Of a stretch of 64,000 nt of DNA, positions 1,127 to 63,828 are shown piece after piece. The stretch spans positions 2,048,001 through 2,112,000 of the forward strand of contig CAWCYI010000004.1 in assembly GCA_963799845.1 (NCBI GenBank). The letters run 5' to 3'. The first letter of the stretch is position 1. Each line of letters opens with the position of its first letter. This stretch comes from an uncultured Nitrososphaerota archaeon (GTDB taxonomy: Archaea; Thermoproteota; Nitrososphaeria; Nitrososphaerales; CADDZS01). The position numbers were made by a program, and so were the translations under genes. The notes beneath the pieces are model-generated. The model was given only the letters and a program-made list of their open reading frames with translations. It made no database searches and had not been told where the DNA came from.

Positions 1127-1144
1127 TAAGAGAAAAAGGAAATT

Positions 1145-1657
1145 CTACATCGTCGGGCTAGTGTTCACGGGTTTGGGCGGGAAAATAGTGGCAGAGAGAC
1201 GCGGCCAAAATTTCTCGTGATCTTCATATTTTGCATCATTCCAGCCTGGGTACTCTTTCTTGAGCGCGTCGAGGACGCTGTTCCAAGCCTCGGGTGTAAA
1301 GTGATGAGATCCGTGGACATACCGCCAGTTATCTCGCTTGTATTTTGGTAGCAGAGCTTCTACTGATTCCGAGGAAGGTCCATCGACCCATCTCACGTCG
1401 ATACTCTCGCCGCCAGAGTATTGATCAATGCGTACTGAGGACGACGCATCGGGAAACATTTCTTTCAACTCTACTCTCAGGACTTTTGCAGCATCCTGGA
1501 CAGGCATCTCTTTGAGATCCTTTTCGGAGTACCTAGAGGGAATTATTTTTGGTACTTTCTTCCGTTCATTCCTCTCGATACGGGGCGCACCGCCAGTCGA
1601 TCTTCTGTAATTTAGTACCCGATCATGGGGCTGCCGTCTCGGATAATGCTGCGCCAT
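1145..1657 (-). CDS. LPD29-like (polyvalent-protein-associated) domain protein with HY tag
   Basis: Starts MAQHYPRRQP. 'AAKVLRVELKEMFP...SVRIDQYSGGESIDVRWVDGPS' resembles the LPD29 signature. Confidence 0.65.
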   Translation of the reverse strand: MAQHYPRRQPHDRVLNYRRSTGGAPRIERNERKKVPKIIPSRYSEKDLKEMPVQDAAKVLRVELKEMFPDASSSVRIDQYSGGESIDVRWVDGPSSESVEALLPKYKRDNWRYVHGSHHFTPEAWNSVLDALKKEYPGWNDAKYEDHEKFWPRLSATIFPPKPVNTSPTM

Positions 1658-1836
1658 TATTGGAAAAAGGAGATTTTCTGGATCGATTGCTACGTGATGA
1701 GAAATTCATCCGTGATGACGACCAGCCTAACAATGGTTAATCTGATCGAGAGATGCGAGATTCTTTTCGGTCTGCCTCGGCCCTTAGCGCGAGCAACAGG
1801 TTATCCGTCAGCTGTACGGTCTTATTCTGTGCCAAC

Positions 1837-1992
1837 TCAAGACCTGATATGTTTCAGGATTTTCTCGCAGCTCTCAAGCATCGATCGTACATCCTCTTTG
1901 CTGAGAGTCCTTTCCGTGAACACTGCGGTGCTACCGAGTCGCCTCTTGATATTGCTGACCTCGCTCTCGACGAGAACAGGCTGCATCGTCAT
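1837..1992 (-). CDS. Small hypothetical protein (51 aa, MTMQPVLVESEV...)
   Basis: Below the ORF-track cutoff; ATG preceded by the AATCTTCCTTTTT element. Confidence 0.45.
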   Translation of the reverse strand: MTMQPVLVESEVSNIKRRLGSTAVFTERTLSKEDVRSMLESCEKILKHIRS

Positions 1993-2012
1993 TACAGGTA
2001 AAAAGGAAGATT

Positions 2013-2387
2013 CTAACAGGAAAGGTTAATCGGGGCCGACGCGCTCAAGACGCTCAAAGTAAAGTTGCTGGTCTTACACGTACTCTGGATGATGTTGCCG
2101 TAAGTGATGATCGCGTAGTACGAATGGCTATTGTCCAGACCCGCCGTGTAATTGACAGTGTTCGCGGGGTTTCCAACTAATTGCGAATTGAAAACAACTT
2201 GCTGTCCATGCTCGTAAGTGATCAATTGGATCTGCTGGACAGGATTTCCATTATTCGCCGTTGCCGTTCCGCTGACGCTGACGCTCGGATAAACAATGCT
2301 TGGATTCTGCGAGACGTAGAGAAACCCGCCGATGATGATGACTATTAGGACGACGATGATAACCGCCGCTACTGCCTTTGCACTCAT
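2013..2387 (-). CDS. Membrane-anchored protein (N-terminal TM, beta-rich ectodomain)
   Basis: Hydrophobic N-terminus; AATTACGCTTTTT upstream. Confidence 0.75.
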   Translation of the reverse strand: MSAKAVAAVIIVVLIVIIIGGFLYVSQNPSIVYPSVSVSGTATANNGNPVQQIQLITYEHGQQVVFNSQLVGNPANTVNYTAGLDNSHSYYAIITYGNIIQSTCKTSNFTLSVLSASAPINLSC

Positions 2388-2412
2388 AGACGAAAAAGCG
2401 TAATTCCGAAAG

Positions 2413-3138
2413 TTAGGCTCTTTCTTCTTCGCCGCGTGTTTCTGTCTCAGCTAATTCCTCGGTGGACCGCTGTTGAGAAAGGTGTGGCTGCGCGGGCGGT
2501 CTTGCTACGAAGGCATTGGACGAGAGACGTTGCGCCCAATTCTGCCAGCTTGCGGGATCCACGTCCTTCGGGTTGATCCTAGCATTGACGTACACGATTT
2601 TATTGCCCTGTTCATCCTCGGAAGCTAAAGGCAACGAATCGCCGCCAGGAACAGAGGCTGCTGGAAACATGGCTCTAAAGTAGACCATTCCATCGTCGCT
2701 GCCGATTCTCATCTGATCGGTGTACTGGTATCCGACAGTGATCCCACTCGATTCAGGAAAAAACCATTGGCCATCAGGAGCTTGGATCGCGTACAGGAAT
2801 CGCTTGTCGTTTGGCGAGCCATCCTCGTTGGTAACTTTTGGACTCAAAAGAAACGAAGATCTGAGATCGCCTAACGACTCAAACATGCTTTCGAGAACCA
2901 CGGCGGCCCTAACCTTTTCCACGTCCATCTCGGGATTCTTTTGCAGCTCTTCGTCAAGATGCCCCATATTCGACTCCATCTTTTGCTGAAACACTCCGAG
3001 AGTAGAATTTGAGTTAGAAGCTGGCGGCAACGGTCTTTCGTTATCCGCAAAGTCTTGGGGTGGCAGCAGAGGCATACGGGGCCCTGGTGCGGTCTTTGGT
3101 TTCTTCTGGGAATAGTGGTGGGTGGGCGTTTCGCTCAT
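2413..3138 (-). CDS. Hypothetical protein with HY tag (MSETPTHHYSQKKPK)
   Basis: About 241-aa ORF coupled to the upstream gene; tag present. Confidence 0.75.
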   Translation of the reverse strand: MSETPTHHYSQKKPKTAPGPRMPLLPPQDFADNERPLPPASNSNSTLGVFQQKMESNMGHLDEELQKNPEMDVEKVRAAVVLESMFESLGDLRSSFLLSPKVTNEDGSPNDKRFLYAIQAPDGQWFFPESSGITVGYQYTDQMRIGSDDGMVYFRAMFPAASVPGGDSLPLASEDEQGNKIVYVNARINPKDVDPASWQNWAQRLSSNAFVARPPAQPHLSQQRSTEELAETETRGEEERA

Positions 3139-3359
3139 CAACGTCGCCGATCTGGTGGACTCTTGGCTATGTGTTCCATTGCCTCGGCTTTATCTTTCAG
3201 CGTTCCGCCGTTCCTGATAATATCTCGCTCGGTTCCGAACACGTAAGCTCCCGCCCTTTTCTTTCCAATCGTTTTTGTGGCACTCGCGAGAGCTCTATTT
3301 CGGATCTGGCGATACTTCGTCATATTCAATCGCCCGCCGTAGTGGTGGCCACTTGGCAT
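3138..3359 (-). CDS. Small basic protein with HY tag (MPSGHHYGGR)
   Basis: Start re-assigned to ATG 3359, which follows TTTTCCTTTTTCCTCT. Confidence 0.65.
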   Translation of the reverse strand: MPSGHHYGGRLNMTKYRQIRNRALASATKTIGKKRAGAYVFGTERDIIRNGGTLKDKAEAMEHIAKSPPDRRR

Positions 3360-3475
3360 AGAGGAAAAAGGAAAATACATGCTTTTTCTTATGTTTAGGA
3401 TGCCGGTGCGCTACAAATTTCTCGCTGTCTCACTGTCGCTAATAATTCTGATTAGTCTGGCGGGCCTCGGCGGTT

Positions 3476-3958
3476 TTGGGTTGCGTTCATCCGCTTCAAC
3501 TGAGACGCGCGCGCGCGCCTCTGGCACTTCCTCTGGATTCCATTCCATTGCAGACTACTGTGAGTACTGCCGAAGCCTTTGCAGACGTAATTTACGTTGA
3601 TCGGACAAAGGGCATTTTACGGCACACTCACACCGAAGATTGCAAGCTCCGTGAAAAATGTCGTGGGGTAGGTCGATGGAAAACGATCTACATGCAAACT
3701 CGGACGGGTCCGCAAATCGGCCCCGTTTTCATTGATTGCTGCGATGAGTGCGGTGGGAAGGGCTGTCTAGTCCGAAAGCGCAAACGGAGAAAAGATGCCA
3801 GAGCTGGACACCAATGGCTCGAAGATGTTGCACCCCAATCAGCGATTGAGTTGATGTGGTCGACACCACTCTATCGCTTCCTGATAGTGGACGGTTCACG
3901 TTTCAGAAAATTGTTTGAAACTGTGGTCGAGATCAACATGCTCGAAGGCGTTGCATGA
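3476..3958 (+). CDS. Hypothetical Cys-rich (CxxCxGxG-like) protein; start uncertain
   Basis: 'EKCRGVG' and 'CDECGGKG' are DnaJ-like Zn-finger repeats. Confidence 0.45.
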   Translation: MGCVHPLQLRRARAPLALPLDSIPLQTTVSTAEAFADVIYVDRTKGILRHTHTEDCKLREKCRGVGRWKTIYMQTRTGPQIGPVFIDCCDECGGKGCLVRKRKRRKDARAGHQWLEDVAPQSAIELMWSTPLYRFLIVDGSRFRKLFETVVEINMLEGVA

Positions 3959-4243
3959 ATCTAAATAGACAGCGCGAGAGCGCGTTCTAACTGTCGTAGA
4001 TAATCCAAAGCCTTCTCATCCTCGGTATGCGAGCGAAAAGTCTTGAGATGAGTTTCGCAGATCACATCGTCACCAGCGAGCCAGTTCAGGAATCTGGATA
4101 ACAGACTTTCCATGAGAGTAAAAGGGAATTTACTCGATCTTCTTGAAATTCCCGTACTTCGCCATCTGCTCGTTGATGTACTTCACTAGATAATCCCGAA
4201 CCTTCTGGTGAATATAACTCGGCCCACTTATGAACAAGCAAGT

Positions 4244-5104
4244 TCAGGGAGCCATAAATGCGTTGATATTTTCTCTCGCCCACATTTCAAATGTGCGACC
4301 GTGGTGTCCCGTGAGTCTCTCCACGGTATCAGAAACATATCCAAATTTGCTGCTGCGAATAGCACCAAGCGACTCAACTAGTCCGGCTACGACTTGTGGC
4401 CCAAGACCCATTCTCGCCATCGGTTCTGCCGCGGCGGATTCCGGTACTTCTACGTAGCGGATAGATCTGCCCGTTGCTTTGGACAAAACATTGACCATGT
4501 CGGCGATTGTTAGAGACTCGGGGCCGGTGACATCGTAAGCGTGCCCTAGGTGTCCCGGTTCCGTCAGCACTATCTTTGCAACAGCTGCTATATCGTGTGG
4601 ATCCACCGGGGAAACTCGTCCCTTCCCGCCTGGAAAGAACACGGTATTCTGTTTCTGTATGTTTCTCGCCCACCACTGTATTGTGTTCGACATCATCATG
4701 TTGGGTCGGAGATGTGTCCAGGCGAGACCACTCGCCTCGATGCTCTTTTCATCTTCTCTGTGCCACTTCCCCGGGCCTATCGGCGGGACAGCCCCGGCTT
4801 CAATCGTCGACTGCCTTACGACGTGTTCTACGCCAGCTTCCTTTGCGGCTGCAATCAGGTTTGGTAGCTGGACTGAGCCAAATGTGATGGCGTATACTCC
4901 ACTCACACCATCCATGATTCCGCTTAGTGTTTCTGCTTTCTCCAGGTCGCAAACTCTTACATCAGCACGTCTGTCAATTAATTCTCTCCTAACTGAATCT
5001 CGCGTCAGCGCCCTAACATTCACACCCGAATCTAAGAGTTGGGGCACAAGTTCCTTCCCAACGTTTCCTGTCGAACCAGTCACAAGAATTACTTTCTTTG
5101 CCAC
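4244..5104 (-). CDS. NmrA-like / atypical SDR NAD(P)H-binding oxidoreductase
   Basis: N-terminal 'ILVTGSTGNVG' Rossmann motif, 'WTHLRPN', 'YDVTGPESLT'. Confidence 0.9.
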   Translation of the reverse strand: MAKKVILVTGSTGNVGKELVPQLLDSGVNVRALTRDSVRRELIDRRADVRVCDLEKAETLSGIMDGVSGVYAITFGSVQLPNLIAAAKEAGVEHVVRQSTIEAGAVPPIGPGKWHREDEKSIEASGLAWTHLRPNMMMSNTIQWWARNIQKQNTVFFPGGKGRVSPVDPHDIAAVAKIVLTEPGHLGHAYDVTGPESLTIADMVNVLSKATGRSIRYVEVPESAAAEPMARMGLGPQVVAGLVESLGAIRSSKFGYVSDTVERLTGHHGRTFEMWARENINAFMAP

Positions 5105-5452
5105 TGAAAACTTCCCATCAATACTGTAACTATAGAAACGTTAAAGCTTTATTGCTTATGCTTTATCCGTGTCTATTACCATTAACTATGCCTGACGATA
5201 CTGAATGGGATAGATTGGTTATTCGTTTGTACCCGATGAAGCGTTGGCAAGCATTTCTTTTCCTCGGACAAGTTGCAAGACTAAAATTACCGTAGTTGTT
5301 CCACGAGATGAAGGGTCGAACAATATCCTGATTGGCAATGATTATATGAAAAAGACTGGAATGGTGGTCGGCTTTACTCGTCCAAGGATTTTCTCCTGCT
5401 CCCTTCCCTCTAAGAAGGAGGATCAAATCGAAGTTTTTGAACATGATTAGAA

Positions 5453-5746
5453 CTAAAAACTTCTAAAGAGTAGCTTCGTGTTTATTTGTTCCTTGATGAA
5501 TGATGGGCTTAATTTCGTGTAATACTGCAAAATTGTCGCAGGCTTGTCTCCTGCGTTCTCGATTACAATGCTGATTGGGATGTTACTCTCAAAACTAAGC
5601 GTGATGTAGGTGTGCCTTACGCAATGCCAAGACTTTAGTTTGCTCAGAATCCGGCCAGTCCACTTCTGAATCGTTCGTTCCACAGTCTTTGAGGACATAT
5701 CAAAGAACTTTGGACTTCTCTTGTCCACTCTCTCATTTCTCGGCAT
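5453..5746 (-). pseudogene. C-terminal fragment of a tyrosine recombinase/integrase
   Basis: 'WHCVRHTY' (H-x-x-R) and 'AGD...TILQYY' catalytic Tyr region; N-terminal part absent. Confidence 0.7.
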
Positions 5747-6431
5747 CTTGCAACCTTTGATCCGCCCCTGATAGTCGTTCTGTCGCTTTCACAGTTCTTA
5801 GGTACGAATAGATCTCATAAGAAACTATAGCAATCCAAAGTATGATTGATCCGATCAGAAAACGCTCGAATAATCCGCTATAGCTGTTCGAGAAATGACG
5901 GAAGAACGGTCGTACTCCCCAGTAGAATACCATGAACAAAACTCCGATTACCGAAATGGCGAGTGCTAACTTTTTCGTAGGCTCAGGAAGTTTCACGCTT
6001 TTCAGTTGTAGAGATATCGAGAGCTCGCCGAGTGGTGCTGCGATGAATGCGATTATTCCGATCACCGTATGAATCGCCAAAGTCTTGCCTGTGGCCGGAA
6101 AAGCAGCTAACAAGAGAGCTCCGACGCCCCAGATTCCAATTGCATACAGTCCTAATCTGAACCTTCTCGAAATGGCCCCGAGCTCGGGAAGGATCTTGCC
6201 AAATGCATAAACGAAAAGAAGGGAAAAGACACCGCGATTCACGAAGTTGATCGTCATAATATACCCGTAGGGTCCTACTGCAAGCAGACTTTCGGTTTGG
6301 GATATTGGACTATAGTGAGGCGGGAGCAACTGAGCTATGGCGACGAGCGCCACGTAGAGAACGATAAGGAAGTCAATTAAAAGAAATATCCTTAGATCAA
6401 TTGTCTTGTTACCATGATCTTTAGCGGCCAT
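5733..6431 (-). CDS. DUF998-like multi-pass membrane protein
   Basis: 'YSPISQTESLLAVGPYG', 'HTVIG', 'GLFERF' and about 6 TM helices. Confidence 0.75.
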   Translation of the reverse strand: MAAKDHGNKTIDLRIFLLIDFLIVLYVALVAIAQLLPPHYSPISQTESLLAVGPYGYIMTINFVNRGVFSLLFVYAFGKILPELGAISRRFRLGLYAIGIWGVGALLLAAFPATGKTLAIHTVIGIIAFIAAPLGELSISLQLKSVKLPEPTKKLALAISVIGVLFMVFYWGVRPFFRHFSNSYSGLFERFLIGSIILWIAIVSYEIYSYLRTVKATERLSGADQRLQDAEK

Positions 6432-6495
6432 TCTTGTCGGTCCTCCGTGGTGTGTCTTACACAATGCCAAGATTATGCGGATTTCAAAGTTCTTG

Positions 6496-7077
6496 TTAAA
6501 TCCGTTTACATTCTTTTAGTGCTTTGCATAATAATCGGCGACTGCCCTGAATGACTCCTTCGGTTCCCAAGGCATGTCGGGGTAAGTCTGTGATGATGTA
6601 GTATCCGTGATCCTCAAGCCCAGGGATCTTGAAGGGTTGAGAGTAGATCGCTTTCCCCTCGGGTATGAGCGCCTCTTGTTTCAGCTGATCGAAGGATTTC
6701 GATTTCTTCTCTTGAAGTGGCGGCGTGGGGATAATTGGTGGGATCTGTTTCGTTGTCTCGGGATTGAGACTGTTGATCCGATTATAGAAGGCTAGGGCCG
6801 CTGCATCTTCGTTGGGCTGCGATGGTTCCGCCTTTAGGACAGTCCTTTTCTGATCTGCTTTGAGGCCATAGACAAAATCAGTCTGCCCGTTTCGCAGATT
6901 GTCTGGATATTTCTCTACGTTCTCGGCGTAGATTTCCTTCGCGAGTTTGATCAATCTGTCCAGCGGAGTGCTTCGAGAAACTTTCTTCGGTCGTTTCGGT
7001 CGTTGCGAGTTTTTCTGCCGATGTTTATTCGGGACTAGAAAGAAGCGAGGCTTTCGATTCGGATAGTGCTTATTCAT
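6496..7077 (-). CDS. Hypothetical protein with HY and FFL tag (MNKHYPNRKPRFFLVP)
   Basis: Tag; basic N-terminus. Confidence 0.75.
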   Translation of the reverse strand: MNKHYPNRKPRFFLVPNKHRQKNSQRPKRPKKVSRSTPLDRLIKLAKEIYAENVEKYPDNLRNGQTDFVYGLKADQKRTVLKAEPSQPNEDAAALAFYNRINSLNPETTKQIPPIIPTPPLQEKKSKSFDQLKQEALIPEGKAIYSQPFKIPGLEDHGYYIITDLPRHALGTEGVIQGSRRLLCKALKECKRI

Positions 7078-7309
7078 CGGGCAGTATCACGCCTTCCCAA
7101 TATTCGCCGTTCTTCGTCAGGGTAACGTGGTATCCTTTCAGATGATCGATCGCACCACTTGGGCGTTCTTTGATCTTGTCGAGGCAGAGCATCACTTTGT
7201 CTGGACCGCCAACGTTGTAACCCGTATTATTCCAGAGGCCGCCGATGTAGCGTTCAGCAAAAGGATCCGCCTGTCTTGATCCGAATCTTCTTTCCTTTTC
7301 TTGGGCCAT
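7070..7309 (-). CDS. Small hypothetical protein
   Basis: Overlaps the downstream gene start; operon-like arrangement. Confidence 0.5.
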   Translation of the reverse strand: MAQEKERRFGSRQADPFAERYIGGLWNNTGYNVGGPDKVMLCLDKIKERPSGAIDHLKGYHVTLTKNGEYWEGVILPDE

Positions 7310-7393
7310 TCGATCTGAGCTCTTCCCTCGTATATCCTAAGAACTGGCTCGACCGAATTGTGCGAGTGCGATGCTTGCGCCGTGGATAGTGCT

Positions 7394-8110: not shown

Positions 8111-8129
8111 CTTGATTCCACTAGCTAGT

Positions 8130-8142
8130 AAAATCACTTTTT
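8130..8142. promoter_or_regulatory. Bidirectional AAAA-TCAC-TTTTT element
   Basis: Lies between divergent tagged starts at 8110(-) and 8149(+). Confidence 0.6.
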
Positions 8143-8148
8143 CTGTAC

Positions 8149-8996: not shown

Positions 8997-9014
8997 GATC
9001 TAAAAACACGTTTT

Positions 9015-9376
9015 CTAATCCGTTTCTTCTCTGTGCCGCATCATCTCGGCTTTCTCAAGCATCGCCACTCGCCTCTGGCCCTTTGTACTTGCAAAGTACT
9101 CTATCCTCGTGGGCTTTTCCTGTCCAAACTCCCAAGTCATGTTTGATTGCAGCAAATTCAAGTCCGACAAGTGATGTACCAGCTCTCTATCTTCCTCGGT
9201 CCTCGGAATGAAGGTCTTATTCTTCACAATGTACGCCAGCATTGCATCTTCTCTCTCTGTCGGCCCAGGTTCATCCACAAATCGCACCACTGGCGAAGAG
9301 CTCAGATTCGTAATCCTAGTGGCGCGCGCGCGCGGTTCACCGCTTTGCGATTAGGATAGTGCTGGCGGTTTCCCAC
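9015..9376 (-). CDS. Hypothetical protein with HY tag (MGNRQHYPNRK), frameshifted in a (CG)n tract
   Basis: GTG at 9376. Adding one CG unit at 9322-9334 joins it to ORF 9015-9290. Confidence 0.6.
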
Positions 9377-9381
9377 GATCT

Positions 9382-9396
9382 AAAAATGCGGTTTTT
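9382..9396. promoter_or_regulatory. Bidirectional AAAAA-TGCGG-TTTTT element
   Basis: Lies between divergent tagged starts at 9376(-) and 9402(+). Confidence 0.65.
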
Positions 9397-9401
9397 CTCT
9401 C

Positions 9402-12502: not shown

Positions 12503-12517
12503 GCTAGAAAAAGGAAA

Positions 12518-13662
12518 CTAGAGTAGTCCAGCACGGTGAACTGTGTCGAAGATTTCGAGATCCGTTGCGGTTCTCCCTCGGTCATGCCGCTGGATGGCCT
12601 CAATGTAAATCCGCCGTTGCTGCTCTTTTGTCAGGGGTTTGCCCTTCCGTTTCACCAGCGCGGTACCAGCTTTATTCCAGTGATAGATCCCGCCAGAAAG
12701 ATCGGTTTCCGCTTTCAGCATCGCGACCTGTTTCAAATCCTCAAAATTCAGCACGTTCAATTCCTCGCGAGTGTACTTCTTGAAATACATCTTGAGATCC
12801 TGCTGGACCTCTGGGAGAAAGGCTTTCGCGATTTCCCTCTTACCCCAACGCGCCTTAACATTGTTGTCCGGATCATACAGCGATTTTCTCGGTATCTCGA
12901 TCTCTTCCTCTTGCTTCGAGAGAATTTCGAGGATTCGAGAAAAGGGATAACCCTGATAGGAATAGAGTGGGGTCTGCTCTCCCTCGATCAGTTTGTAAAA
13001 TGCAAAGATGTACTGACCTGGTTTCACTTTGAAAATCGTCGGTTCAATGTGCGAATCGATTCGCAGCACTTGGCTGAGCCACTTTGCATTGACGCCCTCA
13101 TCGGGAATCTTCGGATATTTTCCAATGGAAGCCAGAGCTGCTTTCTTATCTTCCTCGTATTCCGCAGTTTCCCTCTCGACCAACTTTTCTTCCTGCTTTT
13201 CTGCCGCTATCTTTTGCTGGATTTCCCTCGCGGTCATGGCCTCGACGTAGATGTTAGCCCGAGACAGTTCGGAATCGAGATCGTGCCAGGAGTCCGAGGC
13301 AATCGCAAAATCAACCTGATCCAATTTGTCATCGAACACGACTGAATCCCCGCCGTGAGCTTGGAAGGCTGCTTTCCTGAATTCATACCATTTCTGTAAC
13401 GCCCCAATAGGCAGAAGCTTCCTTTTCCTTCCAAATTGGAGATCTGAACGGTACTTGCGGAACCAAACATCATAGAGTCTCTTTACTGTGGGAGATATTC
13501 TGTAATGGTACTTGCGAGATTTTCGCAGTTTGATTTTCTTAGTCTCTTGAGGAACAGGAGCTGGCTTGGGCCGGGGATCGGTCGCTTGATCTTCGGTGCT
13601 AAACGTGGCGAAGGATTCCTGCGATATTCGTTAGGTTTTATGAGAAAATAGTGCTGCGCCAC
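12518..13662 (-). CDS. Hypothetical protein with tag (MAQHYFLIKP), two homopolymer frameshifts
   Basis: GTG at 13662. Single-base fixes near 13575 and 13350 join it to ORF 12518-13339. Confidence 0.65.
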
Positions 13663-13670
13663 CGCGAGAG

Positions 13671-13684
13671 AAAAACTACTTTTT
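13671..13684. promoter_or_regulatory. Bidirectional AAAAA-CTAC-TTTTT element
   Basis: Lies between divergent tagged starts at 13662(-) and 13691(+). Confidence 0.65.
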
Positions 13685-13690
13685 CAACTA

Positions 13691-14790: not shown

Positions 14791-15083
14791 TGTGATCATA
14801 AAAGGCAAATTATTTTGTTGTACGACGCTACCATTTCGCTATCATGACACTTCGGCGCAAGACGCACTCTTTGTGTTCCCCGACACTCAATCGCCAACAT
14901 GCACAGTGGCAGACCCCGTGCTTCGCTCTGACGTGGACCCCATGAGGACACTCTTTCTCTAGGCCCCCGTGCAGCCGCTTCCAGCAGGGCGAGCAGACAG
15001 GGATCTGACGTTCCATCAGGCCCCACTAGAAGGCGAATTTGGTATTTGAGGTTACGTTAATTCGCTTTTTCTCCTAGTCTCGC

Positions 15084-42529: not shown

Positions 42530-42552
42530 AAAAGGAAAAGCGAATTTCAGAT

Positions 42553-42828: not shown

Positions 42829-42839
42829 TGATCAAAAGT

Positions 42840-43247
42840 TTATTTCAGAATGTCCTTTGCGTACATCCATCCAGCCAGGACTACGAAAAACACGAAAAGT
42901 ATTCCAGTTACCCACAACTGTGGAGAGGCTAGGTCGCCCTGACCATTCAGCTCGTATGTGTCGAAGGCAAACTCGATCAGGAGATTGAACACTACCCAAC
43001 CAAAGAACGCTTTCAGAAAGTACATCCGACCCTTTCCAATCGTCAGATAGAGTAGCCCGATGCCTAACGCACCCAAAAGTGCAGACAACAAGAGAAAGCT
43101 GATCTCAATCATTAGACCAACCCAGCTCCCAGGAACGCGCAGCGCGAGATAGCCCGTTGGCGCGAAAAAGAGGACCAGCAGCGCGGTAATGAAAACGAGG
43201 CCGCCAGCGATCCGGTACACTGTCTTGTTTGCGACCTTTCGAGGCAC
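42840..43247 (-). CDS. 4-TM membrane protein
   Basis: Hydrophobic; GGAAAAATTTGGTTTTTCTTAC-GTG upstream. Confidence 0.75.
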   Translation of the reverse strand: MPRKVANKTVYRIAGGLVFITALLVLFFAPTGYLALRVPGSWVGLMIEISFLLLSALLGALGIGLLYLTIGKGRMYFLKAFFGWVVFNLLIEFAFDTYELNGQGDLASPQLWVTGILFVFFVVLAGWMYAKDILK

Positions 43248-43380
43248 GTAAGAAAAACCAAATTTTTCCAGCGAGTAGATAAATTCCTATGAAAACCGAC
43301 CAGATCAGCTCGTCGTAAAATAGAATTTCCTGAACTGCGGACGTGCAGGCCGCCTAAGTGGATATTGGTGTCGTGCCAAT

Positions 43381-44421: not shown

Positions 44422-44427
44422 TGAGAG

Positions 44428-44441
44428 AAAAACTGCTTTTT
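44428..44441. promoter_or_regulatory. Bidirectional AAAAA-CTGC-TTTTT element
   Basis: Centre of the 36-bp gap between the divergent RFC-like and ligase genes. Confidence 0.65.
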
Positions 44442-44457
44442 CAGTTGCAGTTCCCTC

Positions 44458-45810: not shown

Positions 45811-45854
45811 TGCCTAATCCCAATCCGCGTAAGAAAAGCTAGTTTTTCTGATAG

Positions 45855-46286: not shown

Positions 46287-46321
46287 GCCGTCCTACAAAA
46301 TTTTCTTTTTCCTTTGGACTC

Positions 46322-48056: not shown

Positions 48057-48239
48057 CCTCACCACTATCCGCATCGTGGTCGCGCGCGCGCTACGTGTGA
48101 TGGCTGCCAAAGCTGCTGGACAGAAAGAGATGTACGCGTGGGTCTTTTACAAGCGCATGCTGACAATTCTTCGATCTTCAACAGCAACAGCGACCACGGG
48201 CATACGTCCGTGTATGAATTGGATTTTTACAATAGATGA
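48057..48239 (+). CDS. Hidden tagged ORF (M)PHHYPHRGRARATCDGCQSC...
   Basis: Start looks like TAATG broken by one extra base (TAATAG); stop overlaps the next start as ATGA. Confidence 0.5.
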   Translation, partial: PHHYPHRGRARATCDGCQSCWTERDVRVGLLQAHADNSSIFNSNSDHGHTSVYELDFYNR

Positions 48240-51739: not shown

Positions 51740-52486
51740 TAAAGTAACTTACATGCGCCCTTGAAGCAAACGCTCATTTAATAATTATTAGATATGTTAG
51801 GAAAATGATATGCAAAAGTTGCGAATTTTGCCAAATTAGGGCAAAATTATCGCTAATGCCTTTTCAAAAATCACTTTTTCAACTCATTGTTCGCTGGCTG
51901 GGTTGATACTTGTGTAAGAGTCGTAGACGTGGTCAGCACTTGAGTTACAGTTTTTGAAGCGGAGTGTTCGTAACCTGTGGAAATTCCGAGAGCCAGCCCG
52001 ATAATTGCGATTGCAGCGATGAATGCAATAACCTGTCTTGTCTGAACCAAGAACTATCATCCAGAATGCAAGAGGATCTCATCAAGTTGTATTTGTTCCA
52101 TTCGGGACGAAGCAGCAAGCGTATCCTAATCACGACTGGGACCGAATTCGACCACGCGCTTGGATATTTTCTAAAGGGCGATTATCAGGAGAAAAAGGGC
52201 ATAGACTGCCTCTGCCACGACGGCGACGCTGATGATCTTCCCGTTCTTCCCAGTGGTTTGCTCATGCGAATTTTCTTAAGCCAGATATAAAGTCAGAGTT
52301 TTTCGCCAAAAAGTAAGTCTAATGATTAATGCTATCGCTTGGCTTTGCAGTACCAGCCTTTGTCGATAATGAGGGTTAGGTATATGAAGAAAAATCAGCT
52401 CCCAATGGACTGCGCAATGAATACAATCACGATTACTGCGGCAGCTAGGATGGATACGAAAACAATGTCCCGCAATATCGTTTTCC

Positions 52487-56844: not shown

Positions 56845-57426
56845 TCACGCGTTTGAATGCACTGACATTCCTCCTCATCTTGAGGCCGATTAACTTCAGC
56901 TTTTCAACCAAAAACAACAGAGGGGCAAATGTTTGTTGTAGCCGAAGTTTGCGTGTTTGTTCAAACTTGTAATTACAGGTGACCCATTTGGAGTGGCCGT
57001 GACTCTTGTAACTGGTTTGTCGGACAAATTCAAATGTTGTCACAGCGATGATAAAATCCTATGTGAGTTTCGGTCCCCCTAATAGTTAATCCCGTTCAAT
57101 AAGTGCAGTTCGCCTTCACATAAATTGTGTACTTAGTAATCACATCAGACATAATGATCTGGCTGAATATCTGAACAGGCTCATTATCTCTCGAAATATG
57201 AATATATGCAGTAGTTGTGGTCGAAACTGAGAGCCGCGATAAGGCGTCGCCGTCGATAACGAAAGCCCCCCGATCTAAAAACTCACCACACTAACTGCGA
57301 ATAACAGCGGTACAATTGAAATAACCACAAACGTTCTTGCCATGTTTTATCACTTTAATTTGCCAAGTCAAACGGGCTATGGAATACAGACTAGGTTGAG
57401 CCTGTCCTTTCGGACAGTTTAGGGTC

Positions 57427-58080
57427 TCAAGGTTGCTCTGTATTCATGACGAATTCTCCCTGAATACCGGTAACACTGTAACTTGCACTTGCAGAGAAGT
57501 CATTTATACTGAACCCATTCGACGCAACAAAATTATTATTGCTTGAAATTAGAGCAGAGAAAGTTTGACCTGGTTTCATAACGAAAGATTGCGTCGAAGC
57601 TAAATTCCCACAATCGATCGTCGCTGTCGTTGAAATGAAAGTTGTTACTCCATTTGACACTTGGGTAATAGTATCTGGTTGAGTGGTATTCGTTGTGCAA
57701 CCTACGACGTACGAAGCAAATACTGTGTTAGGATTAGTATCGTTCTGCCCCCAGATATTCAGCTGGGAGAGTGCCACTTCTTGACTTCCTATGTTAGTGA
57801 CTTTTACCAATATCACCAAAGTCCCATTCGGAAACGCGTCCCGATACAAGGCCAAAGAGAAATGGTTCGAGTCATAAACCGAAGCCGCGTTACTAGATGA
57901 ACTAGGAGGCGTTGGACTCAAACCTATTCCCTTCGTGACACTGGCGATCAGTTTCAGAGACGTATTCACTGCGATAGGAAAGCTTTGCGACTCGAGCACG
58001 GATGCCATCGGATTTAGAGAGCCCTGAGGACCCCCTGTAAAAAAATCTCGTGTCCCTATCGGTGTGGTCGGATGGTACAT
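57427..58080 (-). CDS. Ser/Thr-rich surface-protein domain (start uncertain)
   Basis: Composition similar to the island proteins. Confidence 0.5.
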   Translation of the reverse strand: MYHPTTPIGTRDFFTGGPQGSLNPMASVLESQSFPIAVNTSLKLIASVTKGIGLSPTPPSSSSNAASVYDSNHFSLALYRDAFPNGTLVILVKVTNIGSQEVALSQLNIWGQNDTNPNTVFASYVVGCTTNTTQPDTITQVSNGVTTFISTTATIDCGNLASTQSFVMKPGQTFSALISSNNNFVASNGFSINDFSASASYSVTGIQGEFVMNTEQP

Positions 58081-58414
58081 TCCGACCGATGCACTAGCAC
58101 GAGCAAGTCACGTTCCAACAGAAGCGCTTGAGAAAGCTGGTTCGAGGGACGGTTATCATGTGTTGGGAGATTATGTATTCGACGATAACACTCTAATCTG
58201 GATAAAGAATCGCATCAATCACATGCATCCGAAGCCACTGAAACTCTACGACATCGCAGAAAATATTTGTTATGATCCCCGAACAACTTTTGAGATTTTG
58301 GAACAACTGGATGGGATTATGATTGGAGAGTTTCCGAATGCGTCTCTAGTTCGTTTCTTGACTCTCGCCGAGAGAAAAAAAGGAAAAACTAGAGCTCGAA
58401 AGAAAAGCCCCTAG
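58064..58414 (+). CDS. Hypothetical protein
   Basis: 116-aa ORF with a basic tail. Confidence 0.45.
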   Translation: MVGWYIPTDALARASHVPTEALEKAGSRDGYHVLGDYVFDDNTLIWIKNRINHMHPKPLKLYDIAENICYDPRTTFEILEQLDGIMIGEFPNASLVRFLTLAERKKGKTRARKKSP

Positions 58415-58602
58415 CCTAGACAATGGAAATAGTTGAAAGTACAAAATATTTTATGAACTGAACCAGATACAGGTCTCTCAACACCTGGCATAGGCGTTGA
58501 GAATAGACAAATTTGCACCAATTCAGCCTCTTTCACAAATTTGAAACATTAAGGGTTATTTTCAGATTACCGGGATTTCCGAGAAACTTTTAGGATCCCT
58601 GT

Positions 58603-58818
58603 CTACTTAATGCGAGAATCCCTGCGATAATTCCTTCGACGTTTTCCGCTTTTCTCTTTTCGCTCGATTTCTTGAATCAAAGCACTTTCAACAAAGCGTG
58701 ATAGCGTGAGATTTCTTTCCCACTCTGTTTTATGTTTGTTCGTCTTATTGACGATTCGACGAATTCTTTTTCCGATTCTCTTTCGGATTGTGACGACCAT
58801 CCATCCTTCTCGTGGCAT
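58603..58818 (-). CDS. Small RHH-like DNA-binding protein
   Basis: Paralog of 49814-49999. Confidence 0.65.
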   Translation of the reverse strand: MPREGWMVVTIRKRIGKRIRRIVNKTNKHKTEWERNLTLSRFVESALIQEIERKEKSGKRRRNYRRDSRIK

Positions 58819-58848
58819 GATCAGAATCTTCGTAGCACTTGTCTTCCG

Positions 58849-59244
58849 TTAAACTATGGAGAAATTTAGCCCCTGCGAAGTTTCACGCCGAGCTCTTTCA
58901 GCTCTCTTCACAACACTCGGATCGGACAAGACAAAGCCGATGTGATCACAATCTCCGGCTTGGTCTAGCATGCAGAAGAGCTTCCCATGCTTGATCAACA
59001 CCTCGGCATCTTTGAGTTTGTAATAGTCTTTCACTATTACTTTGTTTTCTATTCGGTCCTTTATCTCGAAACGTCCCTCAAGAACATCCTGCTCGATTGC
59101 CCTCTCCAGGAGTTTTTGAGCGTAGGCTGTATAGCTCTTAATGTCCTCCATGATCAGGTCTCGTTTCTTTCTCTCGTAAGCATCCATCAGCTTAACGAAG
59201 AGCTTGGTCTTGAGAGTGAGTGTCTGGTATCCTTTGGTTGGCAA
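58849..59244 (-). CDS. RHH-like protein with C-terminal Cys/His cluster (family recalled from Thaumarchaeota)
   Basis: 'MPTKGYQTLTL...SYTAYAQKLLE...LFCMLDQAGDCDHIGF'. Confidence 0.7.
   Translation of the reverse strand: MPTKGYQTLTLKTKLFVKLMDAYERKKRDLIMEDIKSYTAYAQKLLERAIEQDVLEGRFEIKDRIENKVIVKDYYKLKDAEVLIKHGKLFCMLDQAGDCDHIGFVLSDPSVVKRAERARRETSQGLNFSIV
59037..59221 (+). repeat. 185-bp perfect direct repeat, copy 2
   Basis: Identical to 50216-50400. Confidence 0.9.
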
Positions 59245-59308
59245 CTCTTTTGTTCTCCTTTTATCCGTGAATGGTTCTTAATGAAATTCCAAAGCTATAT
59301 ATCTGATT

Positions 59309-59327
59309 TACGGTATAATTTACCGTA
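59309..59327. promoter_or_regulatory. Inverted repeat TACGGTA-TAATT-TACCGTA, putative operator
   Basis: Between divergent RHH-like and AbrB-like genes, next to a TATATA box near 59296. Confidence 0.5.
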
Positions 59328-59345
59328 GATACGAGAGACTGACCG

Positions 59346-59588
59346 TTGGCAGAGGGACAAAAGGAGCTCAAGCTCAAGATACATCGTGTCTTGGGCGCTG
59401 CGTCGGTTTTCAGACAGGGAGGCTCGCTTCGATTGATTTTGCCGAAGAAGGCTTTTGGATTTTTGAACATGCCGCGAGATCCAGAAGACTCTGAATTTTC
59501 TACCGTTATTCTCATAGCCACAAATAGAGGGATTCTCATTCGGCCACTCTCTGATTTTTTGCAAGATGACGAAATGAAGAGTCTCTGA
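59346..59588 (+). CDS. AbrB/SpoVT-like DNA-binding protein
   Basis: 'SVFRQGGSLRLILPKK...GILIRPL'. Confidence 0.7.
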   Translation: MAEGQKELKLKIHRVLGAASVFRQGGSLRLILPKKAFGFLNMPRDPEDSEFSTVILIATNRGILIRPLSDFLQDDEMKSL

Positions 59589-59842
59589 AACAGACCACTG
59601 CTAAACTGCTCATCGCAAAGAGGTATAGATTTCCCGAATATTTTTGTCATATTCTCTGCAAGATATTCTACCTTCCGAAAATTCTTGCGCAATTAACTTT
59701 GCGACTCTTCTCTTGTCAGAATTCCAAGCCAGAGCTGGTCCAACCATTCTTGAATTTTCGTTTGTACCGATAGTCCAATTTTCAATCTTCCCTTCGTTGA
59801 ATCTGACCTGCAAATGAACGAGAAGAGGAGAGTGATTTCAGC

Positions 59843-59922
59843 CTAATCTAACTTGGATTCTAAGTATCTGAGGAACTAAGGAACCTTGGAAACCAAGTAT
59901 CCAAGTACACTGGTTAGATTAG
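59843..59922. repeat. Array of 8-9-bp degenerate units inside a 10-bp inverted repeat
   Basis: CTAATCTAAC ... GTTAGATTAG enclose TAAGTATC, TGAGGAAC, TAAGGAAC, CAAGTATC and CAAGTAC. Confidence 0.55.
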
Positions 59923-60228
59923 CCCCAAATAGTAACTAAATGTCCTCACACAGTTAAGGTAAATGAAAATCGAAGAAAAAGTTCAATCTTCAAAAAATAG
60001 GAAGAAGGAAACGAAATCGTCAGTCGAAAATCGAATCGATGGTAGCGAAGGGCAAACCGCCTTCTCAGCTGGATTCAACTTAATCGTTCAAGGGTGAATT
60101 TTCAGATGAAAATCAAAATCATCTGTGCGGCAGTGTCGGTGCTCTTTTGTGTTGCGGTGTGTTCGATTAGAGAAAAAAGGAATTACGTGTAGACGTAAGG
60201 ACAATAAAAGCGAGCGCGCTAACGGCTG

Positions 60229-61637: not shown

Positions 61638-61833
61638 ACGACTCGGAATCTCACCTGAACGCCTGTTCTTGCTGAGATACATCGATCCCGAAGCCTATCG
61701 TTGTATGAAGTGCAACTTTGAAACCACTTCCAGTACTTCGCGGTGTCCTAACTGTGGAAAAGAATATAGCTCTACGCCTCTTTGGGGAAAGAAGATTTCC
61801 GAGCTGCGAGCTAAGGTGAAGAAGATTGAGTGA
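61609..61833 (+). CDS. Small zinc-ribbon protein
   Basis: 'CMKC...CPNCG'. Confidence 0.65.
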   Translation: MRETIGSQAKRLGISPERLFLLRYIDPEAYRCMKCNFETTSSTSRCPNCGKEYSSTPLWGKKISELRAKVKKIE

Positions 61834-62158
61834 ACCCGTCTGCCCCGTCCATCCAAAGGTGAAACTCGATCTTCTAATGAAAGGCGAGGGTAGCTGTTTC
61901 AAATGCCATCTCCGGTACGACCTGAAAGAAGCTCGACAAATCCTAGAATTCTGTCAGCGGAACGGATTCAAAGCGAAACAGAAACTCGTCAGAGATACTG
62001 GGCCTCTGAGCTTCATCACTTGGGGATTGCCACCGGGCGGACTCAAGAGAAAGGAGATGGTGATCGTGCATCAGGACGGCAGCGAATTAACAGATAAGGA
62101 AATCCAATTCTTCTCGCGTCCGAAGGCTAGGGCAAATTTCCCGAAGCTTGCACATTGA
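61826..62158 (+). CDS. Hypothetical Zn-binding protein
   Basis: 'CPVH...CFKC'. Confidence 0.6.
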   Translation: MSEPVCPVHPKVKLDLLMKGEGSCFKCHLRYDLKEARQILEFCQRNGFKAKQKLVRDTGPLSFITWGLPPGGLKRKEMVIVHQDGSELTDKEIQFFSRPKARANFPKLAH

Positions 62159-63225
62159 CGGACAGTAGGATCTCACTCTTGTACCCCGAAAGGTTAGGCA
62201 TCAGGACGGCGGACCTCGAAAGATGCCGAGCATTACTAGAATTAATTCTAAAGAAAGCTGAAACAGAAGATCGGACGTGGTCTTACCCCGCTGAACTCGG
62301 GCGCGAGGGTTTGCCACACCTAGAAGATTATAGAACGATTGAAAAATACGCCGAGAAACTTTCACAGTGGTTGCCTGATGGGATCAGCTATGAACCCCAC
62401 AGTCCTGGGGCAGATAACGCGAATCTGATCCGCGTCCTAAACAGGGCAACGTGTCAAACCTGGTTAAAGCAATCCCAGATAAAGACGGCCAAAGAAATCC
62501 TCGAAGTTCAAGCTTATCTGGGACCTGGCTGGTTCTACGAAGATTGCATCAGGAATCAGAAAATAGAAGATTGGATCGCATCCGTGACCGACTTTGGCGG
62601 GAATTTTTCAGCGGGCGGGACTCCCAGGAGAAAGCTCGCCATTGATTGGATCAACAATCGGCTTTTGCATGCTGGATCCACTATTCCGATGAAGCTCCTG
62701 AAAATTGCACAGGCATACGGCCAAACGTTGTGGGCTGTCTCCTCTATGATGCTTCGCGCCAGCGGAACAGACGAGGCCATCTTCATCTACATTCTTTACG
62801 AGTTTCGCGAGGCGGTCTGGATTCGCGTTATAGAATATTTGTCAGAGCAGCGCAGAGAGCTGCCACTTCCGAAGTGGATCAACCTCGCCAACCACTTTCA
62901 AAACCGTCTAGCGAAAATGGAGTCTTACGCAATGAGCTTTGACGACTGGTTAGCGAAGGACGTAGTGGCGGTTTTCCTCTCCCGCCCCGACACGGAAGAG
63001 CTGGCAAAAGAGTACGTTTCGCTGCTCTGTGAGACTGGAAAATGGTTTGCGATCCAGCTCGTCATCGACAGCAAATTCGTGTCAGAAGAGTACCACTCCC
63101 GATACAATGGCTTTCAGGCTAAACGGGAGAGCCTGATACGGGAAGCGAGGAAGAAACCGCGCCTGGATGAGATCCGCGCCAGAGAAAAAGGAAAGAGGAT
63201 CCGTGTACGTTGGAAGAAAAACTGA
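62155..63225 (+). CDS. Hypothetical protein
   Basis: 356-aa ORF overlapping the upstream stop. Confidence 0.75.
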   Translation: MTDSRISLLYPERLGIRTADLERCRALLELILKKAETEDRTWSYPAELGREGLPHLEDYRTIEKYAEKLSQWLPDGISYEPHSPGADNANLIRVLNRATCQTWLKQSQIKTAKEILEVQAYLGPGWFYEDCIRNQKIEDWIASVTDFGGNFSAGGTPRRKLAIDWINNRLLHAGSTIPMKLLKIAQAYGQTLWAVSSMMLRASGTDEAIFIYILYEFREAVWIRVIEYLSEQRRELPLPKWINLANHFQNRLAKMESYAMSFDDWLAKDVVAVFLSRPDTEELAKEYVSLLCETGKWFAIQLVIDSKFVSEEYHSRYNGFQAKRESLIREARKKPRLDEIRAREKGKRIRVRWKKN

Positions 63226-63282
63226 TTCTGCAAGCGGCAAAGGTCGCGAGGAAGATCGCCGACAAAGAGTTACCGAAAGCAG

Positions 63283-63612
63283 TTGAGGACAAGCTCATTG
63301 AAAAACTCGATTAAGCTCGTGATCGTTGCTGCGCTGTTGATCGGTCTAGCATATTTTGGAGTAGAGGCGCAAGAACATCTCAGCATCGGTACCTGCTGCG
63401 ATCAATTTGTTGTTTATTGGATCGATTGTCGTCCGCTACCTAGCGGGGCAGAGTGCATATCTCCATTCTCTTTCTTTTCAGAGTACATGGGAGATTGGAC
63501 CCTCTGCGATAGCGGGAACCTCGGTAACTTCTATGGCTACCAAAACTGTACGGGTCTGAAAGTCGTGGAAGGCTGCTACGATCTATTTCTGACGTGGAAT
63601 TTCTGCTACTAG
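63283..63612 (+). CDS. Membrane-anchored Cys-rich protein
   Basis: TM helix and multiple Cys residues. Confidence 0.6.
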   Translation: MRTSSLKNSIKLVIVAALLIGLAYFGVEAQEHLSIGTCCDQFVVYWIDCRPLPSGAECISPFSFFSEYMGDWTLCDSGNLGNFYGYQNCTGLKVVEGCYDLFLTWNFCY

Positions 63613-63639
63613 CGCGCGCAGGAATTGATTTTTTCCAGT

Positions 63640-63828
63640 ATGTCGCACCACTATCCGAATCGCAAGAACGGCTCTCCGCCCCACTCTGGATCTCCCCACG
63701 GCGGTAGCAACGAGAAGGAACCCGAGCGAGAGAAGCCGGTTGTTTCAGACGTACCAACAGTAGTCAGGATGGGCGACAAGATTTTCAAAATTGGTGAAGG
63801 CGGGTCGCCTCTGGCAATCGAAAGATGA
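63640..63828 (+). CDS. Protein with HY tag (MSHHYPNRK); may continue past the window via a frameshift
   Basis: GGAATTGATTTTTTCCAGT-ATG upstream; tag present. Confidence 0.65.
   Translation: MSHHYPNRKNGSPPHSGSPHGGSNEKEPEREKPVVSDVPTVVRMGDKIFKIGEGGSPLAIER

Follow-up and report, generated by a model that had tools for sequence, protein, structure and literature searches.

Within a 64,000-nucleotide stretch of the genome of an uncultured Nitrososphaerota archaeon (C4:2048001-2112000, hereafter the window, from an assembly of 4.6 Mb in nine contigs that is 87% complete), an integrated mobile element of about 110 kb carries a short motif directly ahead of many of its genes. This gene-start motif of 15-16 nucleotides (nt), GAAWW-N3-5-TTTTTC, precedes 24 start codons in the window, and its enrichment is not due to chance. 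We favour, tentatively and at a little less than an even chance, the reading that it is a compact core promoter for leaderless mRNAs; the transcriptional role, the leaderless mRNAs and the factor that would recognise the motif are what we infer from the arrangement described below.

The upstream block of the motif is GAAWW, now and then TAAAW or TAGTT, and the downstream block is a run of four to six T, followed by C in 18 of the 24 sites. A mostly pyrimidine spacer leads from there to ATG, GTG or TTG, and at many sites the first purine after the T-run is the start codon itself. When the window was compared with 100 dinucleotide shuffles of itself, the looser pattern AAWW-N3-5-TTTTT was seen 40 times on both strands, against 16.4 ± 5.2 in the shuffles (maximum 29), and the full motif nine times, against 1.7 ± 1.3 (maximum 6). 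An initial annotation, made from the bare letters of this stretch, had proposed such an element, and the enrichment over shuffled sequence bears it out; all 14 sites that it had listed, and the four that it had linked to missed genes, were found with their start codons where it had placed them. The enrichment is less secure for the strict palindrome A5-N3-5-T5, which was seen ten times against 1.8 ± 2.6, one shuffle holding 12. The loose matches are unevenly spread: 31 of the 40 lie in the 29.5 kb of backbone with a GC content of 0.50 (window 1-16.2, 40.3-49.8 and 60.2-64 kb) and only nine in the 34.5 kb of lower-GC islands (16200-40300 and 49800-60200), where the lower GC should make A/T-rich words commoner by chance. 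In 50-kb bins along the whole genome, the two bins of the window held 25 and 35 matches, while most others held 2-22 and three held 23-29.

The motif is also tied to the start codon by its spacing. The T-run ends 5-7 nt ahead of the start in 19 of the 24 sites, and 3, 8, 11, 13 and 16 nt ahead in the remaining five; the proximity described in the initial annotation therefore stands, while its range of 4-11 nt, and up to about 19, was too loose. Gene starts were our own greedy longest open reading frame (ORF) calls and not gene-finder predictions. On this basis, an ORF of at least 50 amino acids (aa) begins 4-8 nt after 16 of the 78 runs of five or more T in the backbone. The islands give 3 of 90 such runs and the remainder of the genome 545 of 13,824, with a flat distribution of the distances from run to start in that remainder. 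When ORFs of 120 aa or more are considered, the strict motif stands 2-8 nt ahead of 12 of the 108 in the element and of 6 of the 3708 in the host (9 of 3708 if any start within the first 40 codons is allowed), which agrees with the earlier view that the signal is element-specific. Signal-peptide or membrane-anchor N-termini start exactly at the predicted codons.

About half of the sites lie between divergent genes with start codons only 24-28 nt apart (for example 13662/13691 and 9376/9402). Left of the window, the pair at C4:2,002,752/2,002,777 (window coordinates -45248/-45223) is 24 nt apart, and the 44421/44458 pair is separated by 36 nt. A single GAAAAA-N3-5-TTTTTC palindrome fills such a gap and provides a T-run of its own for each gene, and therefore no separate promoter fits. 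The other half of the sites are found in tandem arrays, where at nine sites the motif fills gaps of 11-35 nt and the TAG or TGA of the upstream gene often falls inside the GAAWW block.

Under the promoter reading, the motif would act on the DNA as a cis gene-start signal, one unit per gene, and RNA polymerase would start at or a few bases from the start codon 5-7 nt downstream, giving a leaderless or near-leaderless mRNA. Two units placed back to back would form the A5-N3-5-T5 palindrome and serve both divergent genes, and each gene of a tandem array would be transcribed as a short unit of its own. The pyrimidine spacer would favour initiation at the purine of the start codon. Recognition would fall to a factor encoded by the element, possibly a 219-aa TFIIB-ribbon-like protein, together with the host RNA polymerase.

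The base composition upstream of 29 motif starts shows two peaks, with an A/T fraction of 0.79 at -20..-16 and 0.82 at -10..-6, and 0.41-0.59 elsewhere over -100..-21. No promoter-like A/T signal was seen at -100..-26 of these 29 starts, and an all-A/T hexamer occurs in -90..-25 at 7 of the 29 sites, compared with 0.32 of random backbone windows. Shine-Dalgarno (SD)-like words, of which the earlier annotation had seen none, are absent from -20..-4 at all 28 motif starts inspected for them, partly by construction, as the motif fills that stretch; the GGAGG-type word that marks a Shine-Dalgarno site is accordingly missing there. Such words precede 22 of the element's 44 other ATG-start ORFs under a loose definition and 10 of 44 under a strict one, SD-like denoting a word match; the 3' end of the 16S rRNA is missing from the assembly.

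In another explanation, the motif would act in the mRNA as a U/pyrimidine-rich, non-SD ribosome-binding or landing site within the 5' untranslated region of longer, partly polycistronic transcripts. The T-run sits where the SD spacer would be, at starts devoid of SD-like words, and the motif is found before first genes as well as before genes only 11-35 nt behind another. In bacteria, non-SD ribosome-binding sites have been called on the ground that a motif stands close to, and at a fixed distance from, the starts of first and internal genes alike (PMC6028130). We nevertheless consider a translation signal unlikely. Leadered mRNAs would need promoters further upstream, and no A/T signal for them is visible in -100..-26; at the divergent pairs 24-28 nt apart these promoters would fall inside the opposite gene, which is often GC-rich. 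Oligo-T tracts terminate archaeal transcription, and a sense-strand T5 upstream would tend to halt the archaeal RNA polymerase before it reached the gene. The GAAWW half and the palindromy of one-sided sites would have no role. Moreover, other internal genes of the element (starts 7077-, 11793-, 49169+ and 714+) lack the motif. The non-SD motif of 'group B' in GeneMarkS-2 precedes all genes at close range; the present motif stands before nine closely spaced tandem genes and is missing before these four, which overlap or are tightly coupled to their neighbours. The same four operon-internal genes, all tagged at the N-terminus as described below, have G-rich words instead of the motif, which matches the pattern of archaea with leaderless mRNAs, where first genes lie beside the promoter and internal genes use a ribosome-binding site (PMC6028130).

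We compiled the start signals of the host from 957 of its ORFs whose ATG start is unambiguous. All-A/T hexamers are most frequent at -31..-29, with 49-60 per position against a background of about 25-30; the host A/T boxes, 8-mers of mixed A and T, start at -34..-29 and have only a weakly A-rich flank on their upstream side. SD-like words have their maximum over -19..-11, where eight of the nine positions count 21-34 and position -18 counts 14, against about 7 in the background, and few T5 runs start at -12..-6 (0-3 per position). This layout fits the placing of Thaumarchaeota in the leaderless-transcription group, to which 11 of 11 analysed members were assigned and whose promoter box stands some 26 nt ahead of the start (PMC6028130). 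In comparison, the motif is centred at about -13, and not at about -30 as is the host box, and motif genes have nothing at -35..-21; the motif is thus too close to the gene for an ordinary TATA box, as had been argued from the outset.

We compared the motif with known start-proximal signals. The haloarchaeal core promoter consists of a TFB-recognition element (BRE) 'CGAAA', a TATA box 'TTWT' and a 'WW' at -10 (PMC4983044), and the motif resembles it in the order of a GAA(A/T) block, a few bases and a T-rich block, is the sole A/T-rich signal ahead of genes that seem leaderless, and would likewise be two-directional when symmetric. It differs in having T5 and then C in place of a mixed TTTAWA-type box, in having G and C in the spacer, and in its position, with A/T peaks at -20..-16 and -10..-6 and not at about -26. 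In bacterial leaderless genes, the Pribnow box lies some 10 nt ahead of the start codon ('group C' of GeneMarkS-2; PMC6028130). Like these promoters, the motif offers an A/T block about 6-10 nt before first-gene starts without SD; however, this block is TTTTTC and not TATAAT-like, and the host is an archaeon with TBP and TFB, in which a sigma factor would not be expected. The divergent sites recall the gvp PA/PD pair, where opposite units with overlapping elements also share a very short control region (PMC2241852), but the 35 nt measured there lie between two promoters, each with BRE and TATA, whereas here only 24-28 nt lie between the start codons themselves.

Several points weigh against a compact promoter. 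We know of no archaeal core promoter at -6..-20. In archaea, the promoter boxes of leaderless genes stand some 26 nt ahead of the start (PMC6028130), a rule that the genes of the host follow. The motif does resemble a BRE plus TATA, but the usual binding of TBP and TFB to it would put the start 18-20 nt inside the ORFs, cutting off N-termini that are conserved and that the membrane proteins need. At the nine tandem sites the motif lies 11-35 nt past the previous stop, at the position of a ribosome-binding site. For the TTG-start genes the T-run spacings are 7, 11 and 16 nt, two of the three being long and a poor fit to leaderless mRNAs. No RNA run was found to contain window 40300-49800, all or part of which is present in 11 DNA runs from soil and peat.

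To these points is added the outcome of the search for transcription machinery in the element. The initial annotation had suggested looking there for an RNA polymerase, TBP or TFB of the element's own, and none was found. The Pfam models of TBP and TFIIB had no match inside the element, and a hidden Markov model of the host's eight TFB paralogues, run against all element ORFs, gave as its best hit a 73-aa ORF with E = 0.0036, which scores 20 bits with PF08271, below the cut-off. For a T7-like RNA polymerase (PF00940), the best match in the genome has E = 0.85 and lies outside the element, a weak negative as control genomes were blank too. What remains is the 219-aa zinc-ribbon protein encoded just upstream of ParB, a weak candidate for a TFIIB-ribbon-like factor. 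Its ribbon was aligned to the host TFB ribbon (hhalign probability 45%, 28 columns), and its nearest clusters in a protein atlas include viral TFIIB-like, VLTF3-like and Zn_Ribbon_TF ones, all with scores of 0.86-0.89, below the threshold of the tool. It had no match in Pfam and nothing relevant among PDB sequences, and its single-sequence AlphaFold2 model (pLDDT 35) is unusable; its homologues, three close ones and four in a representative library, are too few for a deep alignment. A 108-aa protein beside ParB looks, by eye, like a winged helix and is a candidate DNA binder.

Thaumarchaeota integrative-conjugative elements carry a TFIIB homologue just upstream of ParB (PMC6563490); here the zinc-ribbon protein occupies that place, and the cyclin domains of TFIIB are not detectable. 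It is possible, if unlikely, that the element has an initiation system of its own, in which the 219-aa or another element protein would bind the motif and recruit the host RNA polymerase without TBP, with the start about 6 nt past the T-run. In the host genome itself, three loci encode TBP domains and about eight encode TFIIB domains. Left of the element, additional transcription factor genes were noted at C4:1,927,717-1,929,158 (a short TFIIB-domain ORF, a transcription factor zinc ribbon and a 122-aa single-repeat TBP ORF), and a 505-aa ORF at C4:1,981,842-1,983,044 has a weak ribbon and TFIIB match.

The symmetry of the motif raises the question of whether it is an operator. The site of a dimeric, element-encoded regulator could lie over the transcription start and switch a set of genes together, the promoter itself being weak or cryptic; where the bound factor is an activator, this and the compact promoter can coexist. 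Pointing in this direction are the imperfect inverted repeat GAAWW ... WWTTC, its two half-sites centred about one turn of the helix from each other, the several one-sided sites that are still good palindromes (1663-1678, 9002-9016, 43252-43267 and 45833-45848) and a related metagenome contig, L039, that keeps the arms with a changed spacer. Small candidate DNA binders, the 108-aa protein and the 219-aa zinc-ribbon protein, are encoded next to ParB. On the other hand, the spacer varies between 3 and 5 nt, which rigid dimers tolerate poorly; the arm on the gene side is always T4-6, while the far arm, often where no gene lies on that side, relaxes to GAATT, GAAAT or TAGTT, which suggests a one-directional unit; no binding protein was identified; and a promoter would still be required and none is visible. 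An operator is thus, in our estimate, an improbable account of the motif. A hairpin promoter or structured RNA was rejected: folding of six sites as RNA gave 0 to -2.9 kcal/mol, two of the six did not fold, no conserved stable stem-loop emerged, and sites of the GAATT type cannot pair with T5.

We also considered whether the T-runs are intrinsic terminators or insulators that stop read-through and antisense transcription by a T5 on both strands, their proximity to starts resulting from tight packing. As with archaeal oligo-T terminators, a sense-strand T5-6 follows shortly past a stop at the nine tandem sites, where the T-runs begin 7-20 nt past the upstream stop codon and the stop is often inside the element, and the palindromes place a T-run on both strands. 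Nevertheless, the T-runs are tied to gene starts and not to gene ends. In the 60 nt after their own stop, a T5 is present for no more than 4 of 29 motif genes, and each of these is the start element of the next gene, so that the mapping of T-runs to the 3' ends of neighbouring transcripts, named at the outset as a case that would overturn a start signal, is not supported. Divergent genes, with nothing between them to terminate, flank about half of the sites; the T-runs keep a fixed distance to the downstream start (5-7 nt) and none to the upstream stop (gaps of 11-355 nt); and in the host a T5 within 40 nt of the stop is found for 8.2% of genes, in a flat distribution with no peak. Termination is therefore a quite improbable primary function, although the T-runs may in addition help to stop read-through.

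Returning to the genes that the putative promoter would serve, approximately 17 of the 24 window sites precede proteins with a common N-terminal peptide. This tag, H-[HY]-[YF]-[PG], often with x-R-x-P and sometimes with KYFL, is followed by a basic, proline-rich stretch, and the proteins that bear it are otherwise unrelated: among them are a DNA ligase, a clamp-loader-like AAA ATPase, a GNAT acetyltransferase and an LPD29-domain protein. The motif genes without a tag encode mostly small membrane or secreted proteins, and the grouping of tagged and small membrane genes by the motif that had been proposed is thus upheld; nothing observed points to the late timing also suggested. In the window, the tag lies in the first 3-12 codons of about 21 ORFs, including those with starts 714+, 1657-, 7077-, 8149+, 8996-, 9402+, 11793- and 12502-, and further 13691+, 44421-, 44458+, 45855+, 46322+, 48236+, 49169+ and 63640+. 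Homologues of the ligase from other samples, at only 35-38% identity, have HHY/KYFL-type N-terminal tags too. The tag is a peptide and not part of the DNA signal; as a DNA initiator at a fixed distance it was rejected, the distance from T-run to tag being 11-40 nt and tagged genes without motif existing. The tag may serve the element as a signal for sorting, packaging or transfer. As the same genes share this tag, the motif delimits a regulon, the function of which is possibly to supply proteins that travel with the element.

Relatives are rare, and the motif can be followed into a few of them. Among 5.8 billion proteins, a single cluster homologous to the 380-aa tagged protein (9402+) was found, at 75% identity; its called product has the tag and the same GTG start. 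A 1076-nt metagenome contig (L039), retrieved from JGI with a two-sequence alignment as query and 73% identical at the protein level, has CAT-gatct-AAAAAccatgTTTTTT-ctttc-GTG between the homologues of 8996- and 9402+. Both arms and both flanks are conserved, and only the spacer is changed, from tgcgg and cacg in the two copies of the window to ccatg in L039. Compared with L039:640-680, window 9015-9400 contains an insertion of about 380 nt, with a 91-aa ORF (9015-9290), between two copies of the motif and tagged start, of which L039 has one; the 24-aa ORF 9376- is therefore a cut-off duplicate. This bears on the genes that had been predicted from the motif and missed by the ORF calls: 13662- (59 aa, tagged) and 1992- (51 aa) are plausible small genes, while 9376- is not and 1126- (20 aa) looks like a similar remnant. 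In the congeneric genome G005, contig L063 has GAAAAAgcctagTTTTCtcaa-ATG before the ORF MHWHNHYGQP.

Contigs from four DNA runs were compared with window 1-16200, which gave 858 differences, a few usable junctions and one loose end. In run X8, one contig leaves the window within the 12507-12522 element and goes on as ...TTCTAGTTTTTCATTCGTG, a second and opposite unit, with the central GAATTC shared and a GTG 4 nt on. In run X3, one contig has window 4207-6587, with NmrA-like and DUF998 genes, replaced by 422 other letters, and a second lacks 605-1120, that is, the tagged gene 714-1106; gene content therefore varies between close relatives.

Such junctions could mean that the motif, the start and the tag provide homology for swapping gene cassettes, any role in expression being secondary. 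Structural differences between relatives end at motif sites: the ~380-nt insertion is flanked by two CAT/CAC-gatct-AAAAA... copies relative to L039, the X8 contig leaves the window inside 12507-12522, and the stretch missing from an X3 contig lies next to the 1126 start. We regard cassette borders as very improbable all the same. Breakpoints at the edges of transcription units are expected in any modular element, only three junctions were seen, and an action of the integrase on these sites would be hypothetical; the spacing of 5-7 nt to start codons would be unexplained, and the motif is scarce in the islands, which are seemingly the most recently acquired parts.

Beyond these relatives, little was recovered. 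ParB-linked regions from five other genomes of the order (10 loci) showed no association of motif and start: 69 motif-like sites were present, five of them with a nearby start, four of these five in locus L053, one of two loci with a GC of 0.34 that hold 56 of the 69 sites. No match was obtained in IMG/VR for the ATPase, for the 380-aa protein or with the ligase alignment, nor in JGI metagenomes for the 380-aa protein alone. A DNA pattern of motif plus tag matched once in IMG/VR, in a giant-virus bin contig with a GC of 0.38 and without the motif/tag arrangement, and was taken as chance, about one random match being expected by our estimate. Across 401 genomes of the order, the same pattern had 5 matches in the genome studied here and 24 in 19 others, against 14 for a reversed control, and the matches elsewhere were treated as chance, nearly all of them opening ORFs of only 1-40 aa. 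A possible exception was observed in two genomes of one genus in family f15 (L032/L033 in G271 and G229), where gAAAAAggcTTTTT / gAAAAAggaTTTTT, of the form A5-N3-T5, is followed by 4 nt, ATG and the 10-aa ORF MANHYPLVR[TR]; from their sequence these could be motif-plus-tag starts cut short, chance being the alternative. With the ligase alignment, the 401 genomes yielded, besides the window and one congeneric fragment, only ligase domains in unrelated proteins of 280-1000 aa.

The motif-bearing starts span C4:2,002,759 to 2,111,640. At about C4:2,002,000 the GC content climbs from about 0.44-0.47 to 0.49-0.52, and a tyrosine-recombinase domain (integrase, PF00589) lies at C4:2,115,564-2,116,022. 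No direct repeats of at least 16 nt flanking the element were found, and no tRNA genes in the window or in five flanking loci (L004-L008), nor any Rfam family in the window. The element encodes two neighbouring intein-bearing FtsK/HerA-type ATPases of 1094 and 1062 aa with weak DUF87, terminase and phrog_7035 matches; they lie at C4:2,022,261-2,025,545 and 2,026,199-2,029,387, both on the minus strand, the first also with a LAGLIDADG domain. It further holds a ParB_N protein, PKD-domain proteins and many small membrane proteins. In its integrase, ParB, large ATPases and small membrane proteins it resembles the Thaumarchaeota integrative-conjugative elements of PMC6563490, the available text of which reports no start-proximal motif for them. 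The two islands can hardly be annotated at all: none of ten proteins had a Pfam match, and four more gave no match either. Three paralogous island genes of about 200 aa, starting at 24605, 33609 and 37139, are preceded by modules (24555-24604, 33559-33608 and 37089-37138) with gactagaacCTTATAGGa about 30 nt before the ATG; their common cTTATAGGa is an ordinary archaeal promoter layout. The search for amoA gave no match in the genome and is uninformative, control genomes also being blank.

Table 1. Motif sites of the window, with the start codons that follow them and the encoded products (window coordinates; distance is from the end of the T-run to the start codon).
Site	Strand	Sequence	Distance (nt)	Start codon	Product and context
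1132..1147	-	tagaatttccTTTTTC	6	ATG 1126	20-aa ORF (MQKHYPS...), probably a tagged-start remnant; site holds the stop TAG of upstream gene 1145-1657
1663..1678	-	gaaaatctccTTTTTC	6	ATG 1657	170 aa, tag MAQHYPRRQP, LPD29 domain
2000..2014	-	agaatcttccTTTTT	7	ATG 1992	51-aa untagged ORF; 20 nt past the stop of 2013-2387
2392..2407	-	ggaattacgcTTTTTC	5	ATG 2387	124 aa, hydrophobic N-terminal anchor MSAKAVAAVIIVVLIV
3364..3388 (first of two overlapping units, divergent starts)	-	tgtattttccTTTTTC	5	ATG 3359	73 aa, MPSGHHYG
3364..3388 (second unit)	+	aaatacatgcTTTTTC	3	ATG 3391	69 aa, membrane-like
4120..4133	-	gtaaattcccTTTT	6	ATG 4113	50-aa ORF; weaker copy, T4 only
8128..8143	+	gtaaaatcacTTTTTC	6	ATG 8149	108 aa, MARKKSSHHYG
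9002..9016	-	agaaaacgtgTTTTT	5	ATG 8996	174 aa, MPSHQYPNRK; 18 nt past the stop of 9015-9290
9382..9397	both	AAAAAtgcggTTTTTC (palindrome)		GTG 9402 (+); GTG 9376 (-)	Starts 25 nt apart; 9402: 380 aa, VPRGKSSRHHYG; 9376: 24-aa remnant of duplicated tagged 5' end
12507..12522	-	tctagtttccTTTTTC	5	ATG 12502	234 aa, MKYFLVGSRPKHYPQRQP; 15 nt past the stop of 12518-13339
13670..13685	both	GAAAAActacTTTTTC (palindrome)		ATG 13691 (+); GTG 13662 (-)	Sole signal in the 28 nt between the starts; 13691: 274 aa, MPTRKHYP; 13662: 59 aa, VAQHYFLIKP
15056..15071	+	gttaattcgcTTTTTC	13 (atypically long)	ATG 15084	67 aa, MTKKGSHHFF
42535..42549	-	tgaaattcgcTTTTC	6	ATG 42529	207 aa, signal-peptide-like MKPMLIGLIFVLAAISALPAVG
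42834..42847	-	tgaaataaacTTTT	5	GTG 42828	91 aa; weaker copy; 11 nt past the stop of 42840-43247
43252..43267	-	AAAAAtttggTTTTTC (palindromic)	5	GTG 43247	135-aa membrane protein; far side without gene start
44427..44442	both	GAAAAActgcTTTTTC (palindrome)	6 (-); 16 (+)	ATG 44421 (-); TTG 44458 (+)	44421: 346 aa, tag MAHHYFLA, clamp-loader-like AAA ATPase; 44458: 450 aa, AHHNPNRQP, ATP-dependent DNA ligase
45833..45848	+	gaaaagctagTTTTTC	7	TTG 45855	143 aa, LPSHHFPSRHP
46296..46311	+	caaaattttcTTTTTC	11	TTG 46322	172 aa, LSYRHYPNRQP, GNAT acetyltransferase
48214..48228	+	atgaattggaTTTTT	7	ATG 48236	149 aa, MTKHYPERSP
51866..51879	both	AAAAAtcacTTTTT (orphan palindrome)			Second island; neither strand has a qualifying start after it
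63619..63635	+	caggaattgaTTTTTTC	5	ATG 63640	62 aa, MSHHYPNRK

In the literature searched, supplements not included, and as far as the text of these sources extends, we found no description of a start-proximal signal of this kind. Archaeal transcription normally begins at a set distance, some 26 nt, past a TATA box bound by TBP and TFB. For approximately 25-30 genes in this element of soil Nitrososphaerales, the motif points either to a promoter geometry unknown in archaea or to an unknown SD-free start of translation, and either outcome adds to the knowledge of gene expression in archaeal mobile elements. Should the element have its own initiation system, this would be a promoter geometry undescribed in archaea, bidirectional where A5-N-T5 units overlap and driving a set of HHYP/KYFL-tagged genes. 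The motif also provides a simple sequence rule for recognising gene starts and small genes in poorly annotated elements.

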